The notes under the pieces: generated by a model
Database searches by the model: none
Told to the model about the DNA's origin: nothing
Seen by the model: the letters and a program-made list of their open reading frames with translations, nothing else
In this document: in pieces, positions 3,458 to 10,582 of the stretch
How positions within the stretch are numbered: position 1 is the first letter of the stretch
Layout: every line of letters starts with the position of its first letter
Position numbers and translations under genes: made by a program
Assembly: GCA_963702835.1 (NCBI GenBank)
Contig: OY969762.1
Location: 750,626-814,625 of the forward strand
Direction: 5' to 3'
DNA: 64,000 bases
Source: Candidatus Aminicenantes bacterium
Lineage (GTDB): Bacteria > Acidobacteriota > Aminicenantia > Aminicenantales > JAFGAV01

Positions 3458-6400
3458 TTATTGATTTTTACGGGAACCCATGTCCTCCACGGGCAGCCAT
3501 ACCGCCATCTCGCCCTGTCCGCGGTGGGCCCAGGCATAGTAGGGGATGGCTGTCAGGTCCTGAGCGGAGCGGAGGACTTTTTTGCCGTCCTTGGACATGC
3601 GCATCGCCGTAGCCCGGCCTTTGAGCACGACGATGCCGCCGAGCAGGTCGTCCCTTTTCTGGGTTTCAAGCGCCGCTCCGGCCGGCAGGGCCAGGTTGGA
3701 CACCTGGCCCAGGTTGTCCATTGCTTCTAGGCAATAGACCATCGGCCCGCGCTCGAAAGCGACACGGCCCAGGTCATCCCTGACCAGCAAATGGGCCTTG
3801 ACCCGGCGCGCCGGCATGGGCAGTTCCACCTCGATCAGGTCGCCCCTGGCCCACAGCCGGGTGATCTTGACGAAGCCCTTATCCAGGTCCAACGGGATCG
3901 GCCGGCCGTTGAGTTTTAGGGAGGCCGTGGGCTTGAGTCCGTCCTCGTATCTGTAGAGGTCGCTGGGCACGGGTTCGCTCCTGGCCCAGCCGGGAATGCG
4001 CACAGCCACGGTGAAGTTCCGGCTGGTTTTGGGGTCGATGAAGATCCGGACCGTTCCGGCCCAAGGATAATCCGTGCTTTGGCGGACCTGGACGTCCAAG
4101 CCCCCGCCGATTTTCAGGCTCGCGCTGCAGTCGGCGAACAGGTTGATGTAAAGGACATTGTCGGCCACGGCATAGATGTAGCCGGGCAGGGAGGGGATAA
4201 AGCGGGAGATGTTGGAAGGACAGCAGGCGCAGGCGAACCAAGGGCTCCTCTTCTGTTCGCCGCTGGAGGCCAGGGGGTTGGAATAAAAGAACTGGTCGCC
4301 GCTGAGCCCGACGCCCGACAGGATGCCGTTATAGAGCAGGCGCTCCAGGATATCGAGATACTTGGCCTCACCGCTCAACAGGAACATCCGATAGTTCCAT
4401 AGGGCCGAGGCGATCGAGGCACAGGTCTCGCAGTAGGCCGTGGCGTTGGGCAGGTCGTAGTCCGGGCCGAAGCCTTCGATACCGCCCACCGCGCCGAGGC
4501 CGCCGGTCAAGTACATCTTCCGGGAAACGGCGCTCTGCCAGATTTTGTCGAGGGAAGCTTGGTAGGCTTCGTTGCCGGTCAGGGCGGCCACATCCGCCAC
4601 TCCCGAGTAGAAATAAGCCGCCCGCACGGCGTGGCCCACCGGTTCGGTTTGTTCGTTGATGGGCAGGTGGTCCTGGGCATATTCGCCGAAGGACTCGCGG
4701 TCCACGGGCCGGCCGCGCTCGTCGATAAAAAATTTGGCCAGGTCGAGGTATTTGCGCTCGCCGGTCAGACGGTAGAGCTTGACCAGGCCGATCTCGATCT
4801 CCTCATGTCCGGGCAGGCCGTGGCGCAGCCCCGGGCCGAAGACGCCGGCCACCAGGTCGGCATTCTTGAGGGCCACCTCGAGCAGGTTCCTCTTCCCGGT
4901 GGCCTGGAAGTGGGCGGCCGCCGCCTCGTAGAGGTGCCCGGCATTGTACAGCTCATGGCCGTAGCGGAGGTTGGACCAGCGCTCCCGGCTGTCCACCCAG
5001 ATGAGGAAGGGGTTTTCCTGGAAGATGGTGCGGGCCGTATAGAGGTAGCCGTCCGGCTCCTGGGCCGCGGCGATCTTGGAGATGAGCGCGTCGAGATTGC
5101 TATCGAGCTCGGGGTCGGGATGGGTGTGGAGCGAATAAGCGGCGCCCTCGATGATCTTATAGACGTCCGAATCGTCGAAGGGATATTTAGTGGCGAACTT
5201 CCGCTCCCGGGCCGTGCCGGCCAGCACCGCGGCGGCGTTCTCGAAATTGCGGATACGGCCGGTCTCCTGGCACTGCCGGAAGGCGTAAGGAATGGTCACA
5301 CTGCGGTTCGTCTCCAAGCGCGGCGCCCAGAAGCGGTCGGTAAGCTGCACCTCGGTGAAGGGCACGGGCCTGATAGGATAGTCGGGCTTCACCGTATCCA
5401 GCAGCTCGACTTCATAGACCAGGGTCGTCCCGGGCGATATGACAAAGCGCTTTTCAGCGGGCCTCTGTTTGGCATAAAAGCCGCTTTTTCCGTAAGCCAG
5501 CGCCGCGGGGGCAATGAGGATCCTCTTGCCGCCTTTTTTCATGGCGGCCAGAGCCGACTCCAGGGCGGGAGTGAGATGCGTCCGGCCCGGCTTATAGAGG
5601 AAAGGCTGGGCCGGGGAGTCGGGCCCGGGCCGCCCTTCCTCGGCGCTGCTGGCGAAGCTCTTGCCGGCCAAAGTCAGTCCGGAATAGCGGACTTTGAGCC
5701 AGACCCCTTTTTCCGGATAGGAGCCCTGACCCTCTTGGAGGACGATATATTTCAAACCGGAGGGAGTCGAAAAAGCCTTGGGCCAGTTGGCCTTGATGAT
5801 CCTATCTTCTTGTTTTTGTTTTAAAACATCGGCTTCAGCCTGACGCACCTTGGCGGCTTCGACCATACGCCGGAAGGAAGCCGTATCGGGCCTGAAGGCG
5901 TTGGCCAGAGGGCCTTGCCGCACGATCTCCACGCTTTTAATGATGTCTCCCTGGACGATGGCCTTCACTACGTCCATGCCCTCCACCACCCGGCCGAAGA
6001 CCGTGTAGTCGCCGTCCAGGTAGGATCTGTCGGCCAGGGTGATATAGAATTGGCTGCTGTTGGTGTGGGGGCCGCTGTTGGCCATGCCCAGGATCCCCTC
6101 CCGGTCATGGCTCAGGCCGGGAACGATCTCGTTGGGGAAAGTATAGTCCGTTCCCTCCGCGCCCTCCCTGTCCGGGGCCCCGGCCTGGATGACATGGCCG
6201 GCTACGACGCGGTGGAACCGGGAGCCGTTGAAGAAGGGCCGGCCCGGGGGGAATACGCCGTTCTCGATCGTGCCCTCGGCCAGCCCGACGAAATTGGCCG
6301 TGGCCAGGGGCGCCTTCTCGAACTCCAGGGACAGCAGGATGACGCCCTTGTTGGTATTGAGCCGGGCGTAAAGTCCGACCGGCAAGGTCGTTTCTGTCTG

Positions 6401-6468
6401 AGGGAGAAGGCTGGCTCCCAGGAGCAGCAGGGCCAGGCCCCAGGTAATTTTCCGCAGCATTTTTTTCA
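3458..6468 (-). CDS. Secreted multi-domain protein: signal peptide, cyclophilin-type PPIase, FKBP-type PPIase and GH127 (beta-L-arabinofuranosidase/DUF1680)
   Basis: Start is taken at MKKMLRKITWGLALLLLGASLL (signal peptide). The cyclophilin block reads HRVVAGHVIQAG...SQFYITL...TVFGRVVEGMDVV. The FKBP block reads LKYIVLQEGQG...LIAPAALAYG...LVYEVELLD. The C-terminal ~650 aa match GH127/HypBA1-like glycoside hydrolases (RFWAPRLETNR...GHELYNAGHLYEAA...). Start is approximate to within about 3 nt. Confidence 0.8.
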
Positions 6469-6636
6469 TCTGTGCCTCTCTTCCATTTTGGCAAAGCACC
6501 ATTCTAATATCAAGCCATTCCTGCGGCCAGCGGGCCTCATTTTTCCCGGCGGCCATCTCCACTCGAACCACTCCGTGGGGCGAATCGTATATAATATTGA
6601 TTACATTAATAAGACCTATCAAAGTGGAGGAAGACC

Positions 6637-6915
6637 ATGGCTGACACGAGCAAGAGCAAGTTCACGGTCAACGGTTCCGAGCTTATCGAGGCCATCAAAA
6701 AGCTCATTCACGAGGGCAACATCCGGCGCATCCGACTGCTCCAGGATGACAAGCCGCTGATCGACATCCCCTTGACGGTGGGGGTCATCACCGTCCTGGC
6801 CGCGCCCGTGCTGGCGGCCATCGGCGTCATCGCCGCCCTGGTCAGCAAGTGCACCATCGAGGTGGAGAAGGTCGAGGACGTGAAGGCCGGGGAGACGAAG
6901 CCTAAAGATAAATAG
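6637..6915 (+). CDS. DUF4342 domain protein
   Basis: Good RBS (ggagga). The sequence FTVNGSELIEAIKKLIHEGNIRRI...IPLTVGVITVLAAPVLAAIGVIAALV is characteristic of DUF4342. Confidence 0.55.
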   Translation: MADTSKSKFTVNGSELIEAIKKLIHEGNIRRIRLLQDDKPLIDIPLTVGVITVLAAPVLAAIGVIAALVSKCTIEVEKVEDVKAGETKPKDK

Positions 6916-6930
6916 GCCGGAGGCCCGGAG

Positions 6931-7902
6931 CTATTTGAACCAGAGCTTCTCGGCGTTCTCCACGGCCACCTTATTCCTCACCCCCGGGTCCAGCCTCTTG
7001 AGCAGGGTGTTGTAGCGGGCCATGGCCTTGCCCAGGCTGTCGAAGTGGCCGCACAGGTCGCTGCCCAGGCAGAATCGGCCGGGGAAGCGGTGGATGAGGT
7101 CGAGCCAATGCTTTTTGGGCTCCAGGTCGTCGCAGATGACGTCGTCATAGACTACCCAGGCCAGGTCCACGTAAAAATCCGCATAGCGGCTGAGGAAGGT
7201 CTCCACCATTTCGTGGTATTTCTTATGGAAAACGCGCCGGGAGATGCCGCAGTGGGCCCAGACGAAGATGGTTGAGGGAAACTTCTCCAGCACCTCCTCG
7301 ACCTCGTGGAGATGCTCGTAGTCGTCGTGGATGCTGACCGAGGTGCTGTTGTGGTGGATGAGGACGGGCAGTCGGTTCCGTCCGCACAGGCGATAAACCT
7401 CGAACAGGGCCGGGTGGTTGATGCGGGCCACTTCCTCGTTGGTCAGGTTGGTCAGGTCGTCGTGCCGGAGCAGGAGTTCGCCCACTCCCCGCCAGAACGG
7501 ATAGCGCTCCAGTATCCGCTCCACGTCCCGCACGGCGTACCGGTCGGTGGGGTTGAACCCGCACAGCAAGGGGGCGAACCGCCGCTGGTCCTTCTTGGCC
7601 AGCCGGGCGATCTCCAGGGCCAGGATGTCGTCGGTTTGGGGATAATAGTAGCAGCGGGCGTTGTCGTCCAGGTAGTAGTGGGGCGGATGGGGTTCGAAAA
7701 AATCCCATTTCTTTTTCACCGGCAGGCCGAAAACGACCGCCTTGACGATGTCGGCGGCGTCCATGGTTTTGAGCAGCCGGCGGATGCCGTCCGACTCCTG
7801 GATGAAGTCCACGAAGTGCAGATGGGCGTCGATGACGGGGAAAGCCGGCCGGCTTTCCGGGTGGCTGTGGATCTTGTGGTGAAAATGCGAATTGTAGCTC
7901 AT
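6931..7902 (-). CDS. Amidohydrolase-2 family metal-dependent TIM-barrel hydrolase
   Basis: The VIDAHLHF motif sits near the N-terminus, with conserved His/Asp later (HCG...D) and overall amidohydrolase_2 architecture. Confidence 0.65.
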   Translation of the reverse strand: MSYNSHFHHKIHSHPESRPAFPVIDAHLHFVDFIQESDGIRRLLKTMDAADIVKAVVFGLPVKKKWDFFEPHPPHYYLDDNARCYYYPQTDDILALEIARLAKKDQRRFAPLLCGFNPTDRYAVRDVERILERYPFWRGVGELLLRHDDLTNLTNEEVARINHPALFEVYRLCGRNRLPVLIHHNSTSVSIHDDYEHLHEVEEVLEKFPSTIFVWAHCGISRRVFHKKYHEMVETFLSRYADFYVDLAWVVYDDVICDDLEPKKHWLDLIHRFPGRFCLGSDLCGHFDSLGKAMARYNTLLKRLDPGVRNKVAVENAEKLWFK

Positions 7903-8148
7903 GGGAGAAGGTGGAGATAATAGGGCATGACCTTGGCGGATGTCAAGCTTAAGAAAATATTTAAGAAAATACTTGCTTTCTACAAAATGTCTGCTATAAT
8001 TTGAGCAATTCCTTGCTGGGCTGGCTGGGCAAGGACAAACCCTTCTTTATAATCCCCCTTAATAACTTAATTTTCCCCCAACAGCCAGCACCTCTATCAA
8101 GGAATTCAAGGGATGAATTATTTTCAAAAAAAAGGCATGGGGGGCCTT

Positions 8149-8178
8149 GACAAAGGGTCCCGGCCCTTTTATCATATA
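8149..8178 (+). promoter_or_regulatory. Sigma70-like promoter (TTGACA-17 bp-TATCAT) with an inverted repeat (AAGGG...CCCTT) in the spacer; candidate ArsR operator
   Basis: The sequence ccTTGACAaagggtcccggcccttTATCATataaac lies about 30 nt upstream of the arsR-family start. Confidence 0.4.
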
Positions 8179-8207
8179 AACGGATATTGATATTAATGAG
8201 AATTGAT

Positions 8208-8552
8208 ATGCAGGATTGGACCAAGCTCAGGTTGTTCTTTCAGACGCTGGCCGACGCCAACCGCCTGCGGATCATCAAGGTCATCGGACAGGAGCGGCGC
8301 TCGGTCTCGGAAATCGTGGAAGCCACCGGTCTTTCCCAGCCGCTCGTCTCGCACCACCTCCGCCTGATGCGGGAGCAGGGCATCCTGGAGACGCAGCGGG
8401 AGGGCCCCTTCATTTATCACCGGCTCAAGGAGACCCGGCTCCTGGAGGCCCTGGGGTTTTTCGCCGAAATCGCCGCGGAGTCGCAAAACGACAATAAAAT
8501 CCGGAGGACGTTCTGCTGTCCACCCCGGTTGAATCGGGACAAAAGATATTAA
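8208..8552 (+). CDS. ArsR/SmtB family metalloregulatory transcriptional repressor
   Basis: The winged HTH reads LADANRLRIIKVI...RSVSEIVEATGLSQPLVSHHLRLMREQGILETQREGPFIYHRL. Start is taken at MQDWTKL. Confidence 0.75.
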   Translation: MQDWTKLRLFFQTLADANRLRIIKVIGQERRSVSEIVEATGLSQPLVSHHLRLMREQGILETQREGPFIYHRLKETRLLEALGFFAEIAAESQNDNKIRRTFCCPPRLNRDKRY

Positions 8553-8564
8553 GGAGGACATCAC

Positions 8565-9179
8565 ATGGGTTTAAAAGAAAAAATGGCCGAAAAGTGGATG
8601 GGCAACATGAACCCCCAGCAAAGGCAGGAGATGATGGAGGCCATGATGGACAACTTTTTTTCGAAAATGTCCGCCGCGGAGAAGGCCAAAATGATGGAAA
8701 CGATGATGGAAAAATTCATGGCCGGTTTAAGCCCCGAAGAAAAGCAAGCCATGATGGGAACCATGATGCCCAAAATGATGGGCAGCCTGATGGGCGGACA
8801 GGGGTCTCCCCAGGGCGGAATGATGGGCCTAATGATGGGTCAAGGCGGTTCGATGAGAGAGATGATGTCCAGGATGATGGCCGGCCGCAGCGAGGGCCAG
8901 GGTGAAAGTCCCTGGGACATGTGCCGGAAGATGATGGCCTCCGTCAGCCGGGCCTCGGAGATGGCCTCCTTCGCCACTCCCGAAGTGCGCAGCCTGTTTG
9001 AAGAATGGGCGGCCCAGATCGAGGAGGAAGTCCTGCTCTATATCAAGGAGACCCAGATCACCGATGCCGACCAGATCGCGGCCCGCTTCAAACTGTCTAA
9101 AAACAGCGCCAACTTCTTCCTGACCCGCTTGGCCCAGCAGGGCAAGATTTCCCTCAAGGCTGAGAAAGCCGCTCTATGA
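8565..9179 (+). CDS. Methionine-rich protein (about 34 Met in the first 150 aa; tandem xxMMExMM repeats) with a winged-helix-like C-terminus
   Basis: A strong RBS (aggagga) sits 7 nt upstream and the gene starts 13 nt after the arsR stop. The repeats are QEMMEAMMDNFFSKMS / AKMMETMMEKFMAGLS / QAMMGTMMPKMMGSLMG. The C-terminus is ...ITDADQIAARFKLSKNSANFFLTRLAQQGKI. Confidence 0.7.
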   Translation: MGLKEKMAEKWMGNMNPQQRQEMMEAMMDNFFSKMSAAEKAKMMETMMEKFMAGLSPEEKQAMMGTMMPKMMGSLMGGQGSPQGGMMGLMMGQGGSMREMMSRMMAGRSEGQGESPWDMCRKMMASVSRASEMASFATPEVRSLFEEWAAQIEEEVLLYIKETQITDADQIAARFKLSKNSANFFLTRLAQQGKISLKAEKAAL

Positions 9180-9530
9180 CTTCTTCCGGAGACAGCGGTT
9201 CTTCAGGCTCTTGAACTCCGTACCATCCGGCAGGCCCATATACATTTCATAGACGTACTCATCAGGCCTCACCATCCGGGTGATGTAGCGGATGGGAGTC
9301 GTTCCCCCCATGGGGTCCGCCCAACGCCCCGAATCCGTCCATGTCTTTTTCGCCGCGTCGTAGGTCCCCGACAGCAGGAAGAATGCCGTCGAGCTATTGT
9401 CGATCCAGAAGGTGAGGTATTTTCCCGGCATGTTGTCGTAGCCGACGATCTGGATCCCTTCGAAGGGCTGGCCCATCATCGTGCCGCTGTACTTCATCAT
9501 AATGAACCGGCCGCCCAGGATGGAATTCAC
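9174..9530 (-). CDS. DUF1579-like hypothetical protein (possibly N-terminally truncated)
   Basis: GTG start with an in-frame TAA immediately upstream. The Gly/Trp-rich pattern ...LGGRF...GQPFEG...YDNMPGKY..WIDN..GTYD... is typical of DUF1579. No signal peptide is present. Confidence 0.3.
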   Translation of the reverse strand: MNSILGGRFIMMKYSGTMMGQPFEGIQIVGYDNMPGKYLTFWIDNSSTAFFLLSGTYDAAKKTWTDSGRWADPMGGTTPIRYITRMVRPDEYVYEMYMGLPDGTEFKSLKNRCLRKKS

Positions 9531-9592
9531 CTCGCAAGCTATTTATAAACGGCCGGCGGTGGTGATAGAATGGGGCATCTTTTGGCTCAAGA

Positions 9593-10582
9593 GTGGAGTC
9601 GGGCATGGAACGTCGGCATTTCCTCAAAACAGCGGCGGCCGGGTTGGCGGCCTGGCGCGGGATGGGTTTCGGCCAGACGACGAGCAAAGAACCTGCCGGC
9701 TTCAGCCAAGTTGTCCTGGTCAAGACCAAAGACCGGAAAAAGGGGGTCAAGGCCGCTCTAGAGATATTGAGTTTCACTCCGCCCAAGAACAAGCCGGTCC
9801 TCATCAAGCCCAATTTCAATTCGGCCGACCCTTCTCCCGGCTCCACCCATAACGACATTTTGGTTCAGCTTATTGAAGAGATGCGGGCGCGCGGAGCGAC
9901 GGCCATCACCGTGGGGGAGAGGAGCGGCCCGCCCGACAGCCGCCAGGTCATGGAGGAAAAGGGAGTCTTCGACCTGGCCCGCGACATGAAGTTCAGCCTC
10001 CTCAATTATGAGGACCTGTCCGAAGACGACTGGGTCAAAATGACTCCGCAGGGGAACCATTGGGAGGACGGCTTCGCCGTGGCCAGGCCCGTGCTCCAGG
10101 CGGACTATATCGCCGCCGCCTGCTGTTTGAAAACGCACCAATACGGCGCCGTTTACAGCATGGCCCTCAAGCTGGCCGTGGGCCTGACGCCCAAGCGCCT
10201 CATGCGACAGCTCCACACCTCGCCCCACATGCGGAGGATGATCGCCGAGTTGAACCTGGCCTATCATCCCCAGCTGCTTCTTATGGACGGGGTAGAGGCT
10301 TTTGTGGACGGAGGGCCGATGACCGGGAAAAGGGCTCAGGCCGAGGTCATCCTGGCCGGCACCTGCCGAGTGGCCATGGACGCCGTCGGCCTCGCGGTTC
10401 TCAAAGAACTCGGCTCGAACGAGGCGATTATGTCCCGGAAAATTTTCGAGCAGGAACAGATCCAGAGGGCGGTCGAGCTTGGCCTGGGAGTGGCGCGTCC
10501 CGACCAGATCCAGCTCGTCGGCGCGGACCCGGCCAGCCGCGCTTATGCCGACAAGATCAAGGCCGTTCTGGCCCAGGGATAG
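9593..10582 (+). CDS. DUF362 domain protein with a twin-arginine (Tat) signal
   Basis: The Tat signal reads MERRHFLKTAAAGLAA. DUF362 motifs follow: VLIKPNFNS...ITVGERSG... Confidence 0.6.
   Translation: MESGMERRHFLKTAAAGLAAWRGMGFGQTTSKEPAGFSQVVLVKTKDRKKGVKAALEILSFTPPKNKPVLIKPNFNSADPSPGSTHNDILVQLIEEMRARGATAITVGERSGPPDSRQVMEEKGVFDLARDMKFSLLNYEDLSEDDWVKMTPQGNHWEDGFAVARPVLQADYIAAACCLKTHQYGAVYSMALKLAVGLTPKRLMRQLHTSPHMRRMIAELNLAYHPQLLLMDGVEAFVDGGPMTGKRAQAEVILAGTCRVAMDAVGLAVLKELGSNEAIMSRKIFEQEQIQRAVELGLGVARPDQIQLVGADPASRAYADKIKAVLAQG

Follow-up and report, generated by a model that had tools for sequence, protein, structure and literature searches.

The stretch of DNA analysed here (hereafter the window) comprises 64,000 nucleotides of Candidatus Aminicenantes bacterium contig OY969762.1 (assembly GCA_963702835.1, positions 750,626 to 814,625 of the forward strand). 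At 8147-9179 it carries a two-gene cassette in which the gene for an ArsR/SmtB-family repressor is followed by that for an extremely methionine-rich protein. An earlier note, made from the sequence alone, had singled out this pair as an arrangement not yet described. Judged by profile matches, the pair appears to be a Cys-type, Met-expanded version of TsoR/TsoA, a recently annotated kind of gene pair, and the homologues collected below suggest that it recurs widely as a unit.

The gene pair, its operator and its products

The Met-rich gene occupies 8565-9179 on the forward strand and encodes 204 residues. From its match to model NF045695 and from its homologues it is classed as TsoA-like, a Cys-type relative of TsoA that is not a selenoprotein. 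The arsR gene, TsoR-like by its HTH_5 and NF045707 matches, lies directly upstream on the same strand at 8208-8552 (114 aa). The mechanically called open reading frame (ORF) begins at TTG 8187; ATG 8208 lines up in the alignment with the MDD/MQD starts of homologues and is probably the start codon. The ribosome-binding site of the Met-rich gene, AAGGAGG, is read from the sequence at 8551-8557, where it overlaps the arsR stop codon. The operon with an ArsR-family gene proposed in the earlier note was thus found as described, with a measured spacing of 12 nt (8553-8564) in place of the 13 nt given there. As the GC content at third codon positions of the cassette agrees with that of the adjoining genes, the cassette does not have the look of a recent acquisition.

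A sigma-70-type promoter precedes arsR on the forward strand at 8147-8175, with the -35 box TTGACA at 8147-8152, a 17-nt spacer and the -10 box TATCAT at 8170-8175, and the promoter scan matched 11 of the 12 consensus positions. Twin palindromic operators are predicted at 8174-8209 on the same strand, where they extend over the -10 box, the presumed start of transcription and the ATG of arsR. The first, O1 (8174-8193), reads ATATAAAC-ggat-ATTGATAT and the second, O2 (8190-8209), reads ATATTAAT-gaga-ATTGATAT, giving two overlapping, imperfect 8-4-8 palindromes offset by 16 bp. The same layout was seen across phyla: CTTGACAA, 17 nt and TAT(C/T)AT, with ATATAAAC-N4-GTTTATAT running over the -10 box and, 8 nt past the operator, another (G/A)TTTATAT whose last bases form the arsR ATG. 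In 82 anchored loci CTTGACAA holds the same position relative to the operator. The operator pattern occurs in the 64-kb window at this site only (0.01 matches expected), and in other loci once each, always at the promoter of the paired arsR. The only visible local target of the window repressor is its own bicistron, and the cassette is a self-contained, autoregulated two-gene unit with predicted operators over its promoter.

The upstream protein belongs to the ArsR/SmtB family (HTH_5, E 1.8e-13; NF033788, 74.7 bits, cutoff 55), and its best solved relative is SmtB (E 8e-11). In comparison with SmtB no canonical metal site was found: a Ser stands at the position of Cys61 (alpha3N), and the alpha5 Asp/His ligands are missing, with LKETRLL where SmtB has LQDHHIV. 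Its Cys residues are confined to a basic C-terminal tail (...RRTFCCPPRLNRDKRY, charge +5), which holds a vicinal CC pair; family-wide this tail reads MF(C)CPPWW. ArsR proteins with C-terminal Cys residues exist, for example in Acidithiobacillus and Shewanella, and the tail CC pair is reminiscent of them. The match to BigR was weak (43-54 bits against a cutoff of 155). From these alignments we infer that a canonical metal site is absent from the window ArsR itself.

The Met-rich protein contains 34 Met, all within residues 1-135 (25%, versus 2.0% in the long ORFs of the window), so the extreme enrichment reported earlier stands. MMxxMM motifs occur six times, at residues 23, 43, 63, 67, 86 and 100, and C120 is the only Cys in the 204 residues. 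Three Met repeats fill residues 16-76 (8610-8792, forward strand) and read NPQQRQEMMEAMMDNFFSKM / SAAEKAKMMETMMEKFMAGL / SPEEKQAMMGTMMPKMMGSL; the earlier note had recognised the three repeats and taken their period as about 16 aa, and the MM pairs at 23, 43 and 63 set it at 20 aa. The repeats have diverged in DNA, Tandem Repeats Finder giving only a 12-nt, 2.2-copy array at 8813-8839. An AlphaFold model built with a 116-sequence alignment folds each repeat into one amphipathic helix (residues 17-33, 37-53 and 57-76; predicted local distance difference test score, pLDDT, 75-80), with an MMxxMMxxF/M face of Met and Phe opposite a charged face. A flexible Gly/Met-rich linker follows at residues 77-115 (8793-8909, forward strand; GGMMGLMMGQGG, REMMSRMM), with pLDDT mostly below 50 and a length that differs among family members. 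It leads to the Cys motif P-W-D-M-C-R-K-M-M-A at residues 116-125 (8910-8939, forward strand), in which C120 is encoded by the TGC codon at 8922-8924.

The C-terminal part of the protein (residues 139-200; 8979-9164, forward strand) consists of an acidic helix (TPEVRSLFEEWAAQIEEEVL) and a compact winged helix, and residues 140-200 were modelled with pLDDT of about 94-95. All of the top 50 Foldseek matches of this domain in the Protein Data Bank (PDB) were winged-helix proteins, the best being Zalpha 4kmf_A (TM-score by target length 0.79, root-mean-square deviation 1.1 A) and others including 5duk, DeoR, LexA and FtsK-gamma; the E-values were weak (0.1-1). At the sequence level the matches to FeoC, z-alpha and Lrs14 were sub-threshold, and a PDB sequence search with the Met-rich protein returned marginal winged-helix matches only. 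The model supports a three-helix winged-helix fold for the C-terminus, as the earlier note had suspected. Its further proposal of a fused DNA-binding domain holds for the fold alone: the domain has a net charge of -1, which makes binding of DNA by it doubtful.

This bears on the explanation that the partner is a DNA-binding co-repressor, whose winged helix would sit on one or more extra operator half-sites beside the ArsR dimer and be released when a ligand binds the Met/Cys region. The fold would suit such a role, and the three to four half-sites at a 16-bp period exceed the need of one dimer. These half-sites are, however, identical in sequence, and two ArsR dimers on overlapping palindromes explain them. 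Moreover, the net charge of the domain contrasts with the +6 of ArsR, and among its best fold matches are winged helices that bind without specificity or bind protein (Zalpha, FtsK-gamma). We regard the co-repressor as quite improbable.

No signal peptide or membrane segment was found in the Met-rich protein, the N-terminus being hydrophilic and the highest Kyte-Doolittle average over 19 residues 0.37, in agreement with the cytoplasmic location first assigned to it. Met-motif proteins that bind Cu(I) or Ag(I), such as CusF, PcoC/CopC, the Met-rich helix of CueO and the Mets motifs of Ctr1, are periplasmic or extracellular. They share with the window protein similar MxxM/MM thioether motifs, and the alternation of W and M beside the ligand residues (PWDMC versus PMEMC) recalls the Trp/Met cap position of CusF, but their folds and location differ. 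Neither the signal peptide nor the beta-barrel or cupredoxin-like fold of the CusF/PcoC/CopC class was found in the window protein, whose model is all-helical. The many Cys and thiolate clusters of metallothioneins and Csp-type proteins were likewise not found, there being a single Cys in 204 residues.

The homologue family and its relation to TsoR/TsoA

Homologues of the Met-rich protein numbered 170 in a word-index search and 555 when a profile built on the C-terminal core was used. Scanned exhaustively with HMMER, 1.84 billion representatives yielded 406 cluster representatives at E<=1e-3, and 229 at E<=1e-10. The family consensus is P-(W/M)-(D/E)-M-C-(K/R)-K-M-M, then ATPEVRxLFEEWxxQIEEEIL, then the winged helix. 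M119, C120, K122, M123 and M124 were invariant in one alignment (A1), and C120 was kept in at least 90% of the sequences of another (A4); E140, F145, W148 and E155 of the acidic helix and winged helix were invariant as well. The region preceding the Cys motif (N-region) spanned 16 to 127 aa, with a median of 101 and a mean Met content of 28% (112 sequences), and exactly one Cys was present in 89 of 112 homologues. Met made up at least 15% in 44 of the 48 distant representatives having an N-region of 30 aa or more. Some distant N-regions gain vicinal CC pairs (P0244) or His runs (P0222), and both CxxxC variants (MCMGMC) and 104-aa short forms (MDPREMMKGMMGEGFNPMEMCKGM...; among them P0138, named Thermodesulfobacteriota by NCBI) exist. 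In these comparisons it is the motif with the single Cys, together with the winged helix, that forms the conserved core of the family, and the Met repeats are an expandable add-on. The N-region of P0244 (201 aa) holds 15 Cys, mostly in CC pairs (seven CC/CCC runs), alongside Met, and resembles a metallothionein version of the family N-region.

A lack of Met enrichment among homologues, which the earlier note had held would point to a low-complexity artefact, was not seen. Since homologues retain the enrichment, it is not due to chance. The biased composition is all that speaks for an artefact or a non-coding ORF, an explanation ruled out by hundreds of homologues with conserved motifs, by the conserved partner, by the ribosome-binding site and operator context and by the confidently folded domain; the probability left to it is negligible. 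At one locus (L059) an in-frame TAG stands at the Trp codon of the PWDMC motif (5058-5060) of an otherwise intact homologue. Selenocysteine (Sec) was rejected there, the codon being TAG, and a pseudogene or sequencing error is the reading retained.

In contigs of one genome per species the family was found at 38 loci, all in metagenome-assembled genomes, of Aminicenantes, Bacteroidota, Ignavibacteriota, Spirochaetota, Bacillota, Deltaproteobacteria, NC10, Chrysiogenales, Actinomycetota, Acidobacteriota and Chitinivibrionales. The Aminicenantes locus L005 is of the window's clade and 96% identical. A homologous ArsR gene was directly upstream on the same strand at about 31 of the 34 genome loci with upstream DNA. 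The metagenome set comprised 80 loci, 62 of whose 70 with upstream DNA had ArsR directly upstream; the count rises to about 67 of 70 with five further loci at which an ORF was over-extended, a small membrane protein intervenes or a remnant is left. Overall the pairing held at about 95% of more than 100 loci in at least 10 phylum-level groups, so that the ArsR neighbour, whose conservation the earlier note had asked about, is kept. From the regulator side, both of the ArsR homologues looked up have a Met-rich partner downstream. On this evidence ArsR and the Met-rich partner form an obligate unit across many anaerobic phyla.

At two metagenome loci (L117 and L121) arsR and the partner gene are separated by a gene for a small membrane protein, which has a helix of the MWIFPLIGLL type. 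The arsR-partner regions of Deltaproteobacteria CSP1-8 (L033) and NC10 CSP1-5 (L034) are near-identical, with one residue of difference in the partner, owing perhaps to duplication in binning or to recent transfer.

The best specific family for both window proteins is that of the TsoR/TsoA models. The Met-rich protein matched NF045695 (LULAXC motif selenoprotein TsoA) with an E-value of 3e-20 and 73 bits, below the cutoff of 170; its residues 49-192 align on profile positions 2-143, taking in part of the Met region, the Cys motif and the winged helix. The window ArsR matched NF045707 (metalloregulator TsoR), its best specific match, with 86.1 bits, below the cutoff of 115, and the partner ArsR proteins of other loci gave 68-86 bits. 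Relatives of the Met-rich protein scored 38-78 bits against the TsoA model, all below the cutoff, which was reached by none of 20 rescanned relatives picked among the matches listed (the best 120 of 555 from the profile search and the best 150 of 406 from the exhaustive search). The search with the ArsR query returned no match named TsoR. Because both models were matched below their cutoffs, we read the window pair as a Cys-type, non-selenoprotein relative of TsoR/TsoA. By sequence it is homologous to that pair while falling outside Tso on every membership criterion tested.

The invariant Cys of the family, C120, corresponds to position 71 of the NF045695 profile. The defining motif of TsoA holds Sec and Cys in the region of the family Cys motif, and the TsoA Sec may lie at profile position 67 or at position 71 itself. 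No Sec or LULAxC motif was found in the window ORF, which is uninterrupted, reads SPWDMCRKMM in the motif region and has a single Cys, and an in-frame TGA at the motif was seen at 0 of 38 genome loci. In the gene layout of the fragment P0235, an ORF ends exactly one codon before Met1 of P0235 in the same frame, which suggests an in-frame stop, and with it a putative Sec, at -4 from the family Cys. A degenerate DNA search of metagenome contigs for this locus gave no match.

The review PMC13188914 lists Tso as the "three selenoprotein operon" of Haft & Tolstoy 2025, and in its table TsoB is rhodanese/DsbD-like. The window cassette shares with TsoR/TsoA the same pair in the same order, an ArsR-type regulator and then a small protein. 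It differs in three respects: TsoA has Sec and the LULAxC motif, where the window protein has PWDMCRKMM with one Cys; the Tso operon includes the selenoproteins TsoB and TsoC, and neither tsoB nor tsoC was found near the window pair; and Met repeats lengthen the window protein by about 50 residues at its N-terminus. The claim of an undescribed arrangement therefore needs narrowing, as NCBIfam models a homologous pair, whose two models the window genes match below the cutoffs, and the review lists its operon.

Genomic neighbourhoods and the nature of the ligand

Within 5 kb of the arsR-partner pair, at least one hgc, ars or methyltransferase gene was present at 15 of the 38 genome loci (window included) and at 12 of the 80 metagenome loci, many of them on short contigs. 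The cap-helix motif NVWCAAGK served to call hgcA, and hgcB was recognised by its two 4Fe-4S motifs and, in most copies, a CC pair at the C-terminus. In an uncultured bacterium (L001, CAZSAP010000001.1) a four-gene operon at 5631-7923 runs arsR, Met-rich partner, hgcA (GINVWCAAGKGTFG) and hgcB, with 19 nt between arsR and the partner, 16 nt between the partner and hgcA, and a 4-nt overlap of hgcA and hgcB; the hgcB product is 97 aa long and ends in GGCC. Elsewhere hgcAB lies in tandem with the pair (L009, L011, L012), on the opposite strand (L010), divergent (L075) or convergent (L085).

Genes for ACR3, for ArsC of the low-molecular-weight protein tyrosine phosphatase (LMW-PTP) type and for S-adenosylmethionine (SAM) methyltransferases also recur near the pair. 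At L046 a large ArsP/thioredoxin/DsbD/ArsC/ACR3 cluster, followed by VKOR, flanks it. Directly 3' of a 104-aa short form at L032 is a gene at 4439-5269 that scores as MduS, a selenoprotein methyltransferase (NF045649, 382.6 bits, the cutoff being 380); its ORF as called ends ...AACDS at a TGA and fits a CxxU Sec site. Short forms are trailed by small SHOCT-domain proteins (L043-L045), for which a membrane segment is predicted in L030 and L033. A CxxxC relative (L130) lies between a SAM-methyltransferase and an HMA/P1B-ATPase, directly upstream of the ATPase gene. The only family member found in a cultured organism, WP_034928677.1 (132 aa, annotated "hypothetical protein"), is encoded on the conjugative plasmid pTX1 of Thauera sp. 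K11 (L129 5872-6479; NZ_CP023440.1 94618-95225). It sits in a heavy-metal resistance island between cadR and the gene for a GDCCVxC domain-containing (seleno)protein, and a P-type ATPase and a two-component system, both for heavy metals, are encoded beside it.

No Cu-specific gene family was recurrent among the neighbours, and the neighbourhoods favour Hg, As, Cd-class and organometal(loid) chemistry over Cu/Ag. The metal role suggested in the earlier note is thus backed by context and by the homologues with CC- or His-bearing N-regions, and its Cu/Ag specificity is not.

Genes resembling arsR, with acr3, arsC and arsM or other methyltransferase genes, have been reported beside hgcAB (Gionfriddo et al., bioRxiv 10.1101/2022.10.17.512643; McDaniel 2020, PMC7438021; Peterson 2025, PMC11984097), and the L001 order of arsR, Met-rich gene, hgcA and hgcB resembles these loci. 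A Met-rich partner beside the hgcAB-linked arsR is not mentioned in these three sources, and a literature search for Met-rich proteins in ArsR operons found nothing related. The ArsR2 of Pseudodesulfovibrio mercurii ND132, encoded directly upstream of hgcAB, has a four-Cys site (Cys47/49/86/88); the window ArsR differs in having no Cys in its core, and the window has no hgcAB, the hgcA motif being found nowhere in it. In ND132 the hgcAB regulator is DND132_1054 and hgcA is DND132_1056; DND132_1055, which lies between them and goes unmentioned in the study of this regulator, may be a TsoA-like protein.

Alternatively, the partner could be a redox sensor or sink, responding to oxidants or to reactive sulfur or selenium species through oxidation of Met to the sulfoxide, or through a disulfide or persulfide of Cys120 with the ArsR tail. 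HypT and BigR/SqrR offer parallels for such sensing. The very high Met content fits, as do the weak BigR match of the ArsR, the nearby MsrA (PMSR, L044), VKOR (L046) and thioredoxin/DsbD_TM set (L046), each at one locus, and the TsoA relatives with Sec and Cys, together with the rhodanese/DsbD-like TsoB of the review table (PMC13188914). Yet the hosts are strict-anaerobe lineages, the recurrent neighbours are metal(loid) and not oxidative-stress genes, MsrA adjacency was seen once only, and the variants whose N-region is rich in Cys or His are better explained by metal ligation. We consider a redox role very unlikely, and the Met-oxidation sensor envisaged in the earlier note gained no specific support.

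One parallel among classical systems is SmtB-SmtA, along with other metal-sequestering proteins under ArsR/SmtB control, where a repressor of this family governs a small cytoplasmic protein with many metal-ligand residues. The window pair likewise joins an ArsR/SmtB gene to a small cytoplasmic protein rich in ligand residues. It differs in that the ligands are Met thioethers and one Cys and not a Cys cluster, the genes are co-transcribed and not divergent as in smt, the repressor lacks the alpha3N and alpha5 sites, and the partner has a winged helix. ArsD, for its part, uses vicinal Cys pairs to bind the metalloid, acts as a regulator or chaperone as well and is of thioredoxin-like fold. As with ArsR-ArsD, the window has a second small cytoplasmic protein encoded right after ArsR, and the family also adjoins ars genes; there is no relation in sequence or fold, the window protein having one Cys and many Met.

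On SmtB/SmtA logic the pair could serve pure sequestration, the ArsR sensing through its tail Cys or an unrecognised site and the Met-rich protein being mere cargo, a metal sponge of the thioether type or a chaperone, with no part in signalling. The partner is indeed the only gene under the window operator, the copy number of the Met repeats varies as a capacity trait would, N-regions are Cys- or His-rich in some homologues, and the window ArsR has its vicinal CC pair in the tail. Against this, conservation in the partner is highest in the single-Cys helix, acidic helix and winged helix and not in the Met repeats; the 104-aa short forms, with almost no binding capacity, are still strictly paired with ArsR; where cargo genes are present (hgcAB, MduS) the partner still stands between them and the regulator; and some ArsR proteins have no tail Cys. 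Sequestration alone is in our view unlikely, although it keeps an appreciable share of the probability.

In the window itself the cassette is flanked by genes for an amidohydrolase, DUF4342, DUF1579, DUF362 and a nitroreductase. The DUF1579 gene (9174-9530, reverse strand, E 9e-25) is convergent with the Met-rich gene and shares the last 6 nt of its ORF, and no terminator-like site was found between the two. An Rfam scan of 7800-9700 gave no relevant match. Read-through of the terminal TGA of the Met-rich gene (9177-9179) was rejected, as the downstream frame is antisense to the DUF1579 gene and is not conserved. Further upstream, a 1054-aa ORF on the reverse strand (3458-6622) joins a cyclophilin peptidyl-prolyl isomerase (PPIase), an FKBP PPIase and a complete GH127 beta-L-arabinofuranosidase with its catalytic, middle and C-terminal domains all present. 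A hydrophobic stretch resembling a signal peptide lies about 55-70 residues into this mechanically called ORF, an unusual fusion of chaperone and glycosidase.

A proposed ligand-capturing role for the partner

We tentatively favour, at a little short of an even chance, a reading in which the Met/Cys partner captures a thiophilic metal(loid) and relays its occupancy to the siteless repressor, derepression then raising the amount of the binding protein. The reading draws on the conserved family and its core, the pairing with ArsR, the operator, the repressor without a site, the ligand residues of the N-region, the link to TsoA and the genomic context. The ligand would be a soft metal(loid) of the Hg, As, Cd, Cu or Ag class, possibly methylated, held by the C120 thiolate and Met thioethers, with the Met helices adding binding capacity. 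Occupancy could plausibly be relayed by the acidic helix or winged helix contacting the basic, Cys-bearing tail of ArsR. Derepression would yield more binding protein, so that sensing would come with built-in buffering.

Several observations weigh against this reading of the partner as ligand-capturing subunit. The PWDMCRKMM region was modelled as a helix with pLDDT of only about 56, and the predicted template modelling score (pTM) of the whole-protein AlphaFold model was 0.35. Sites rich in thioethers are typical of periplasmic and not of cytoplasmic metal proteins. The ArsR tail is wholly missing at three Spirochaetota loci and is without Cys in a few others; since tail Cys is not universal, a Cys-Cys bridge between ArsR and the partner is not a general mechanism. 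Proteins in which ArsR and the partner are fused were not found. Finally, no ars, hgc or methyltransferase genes were found in the 64-kb window, where the cassette stands alone, and the argument from context is therefore borrowed from relatives.

A bolder version of the ligand-capture reading, which we consider improbable, would leave ArsR with DNA binding only and make the Met/Cys partner (Sec/Cys in TsoA) a detachable sensor subunit for monofunctional or methylated soft metal(loid)s, for example methylmercury or methylarsenite. Where it abuts hgcAB, the partner would then be an overlooked part of the arsR-like control of mercury methylation.

The control and the native role of hgcAB are open questions, and the coupled partner of one ArsR subfamily bears on them, an unstudied protein that in at least one operon is encoded after the regulator and before hgcA. 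Through these homologues TsoA, a selenoprotein annotated only recently, is connected with a far larger family of the Cys type. A metal region dominated by thioethers, as this family would have, is rare among cytoplasmic proteins. The sharply defined predicted operator eases the design of electrophoretic mobility shift, reporter and binding work. If the partner is indeed the sensing subunit, a split, two-protein design would be added to the ArsR/SmtB family of sensors.

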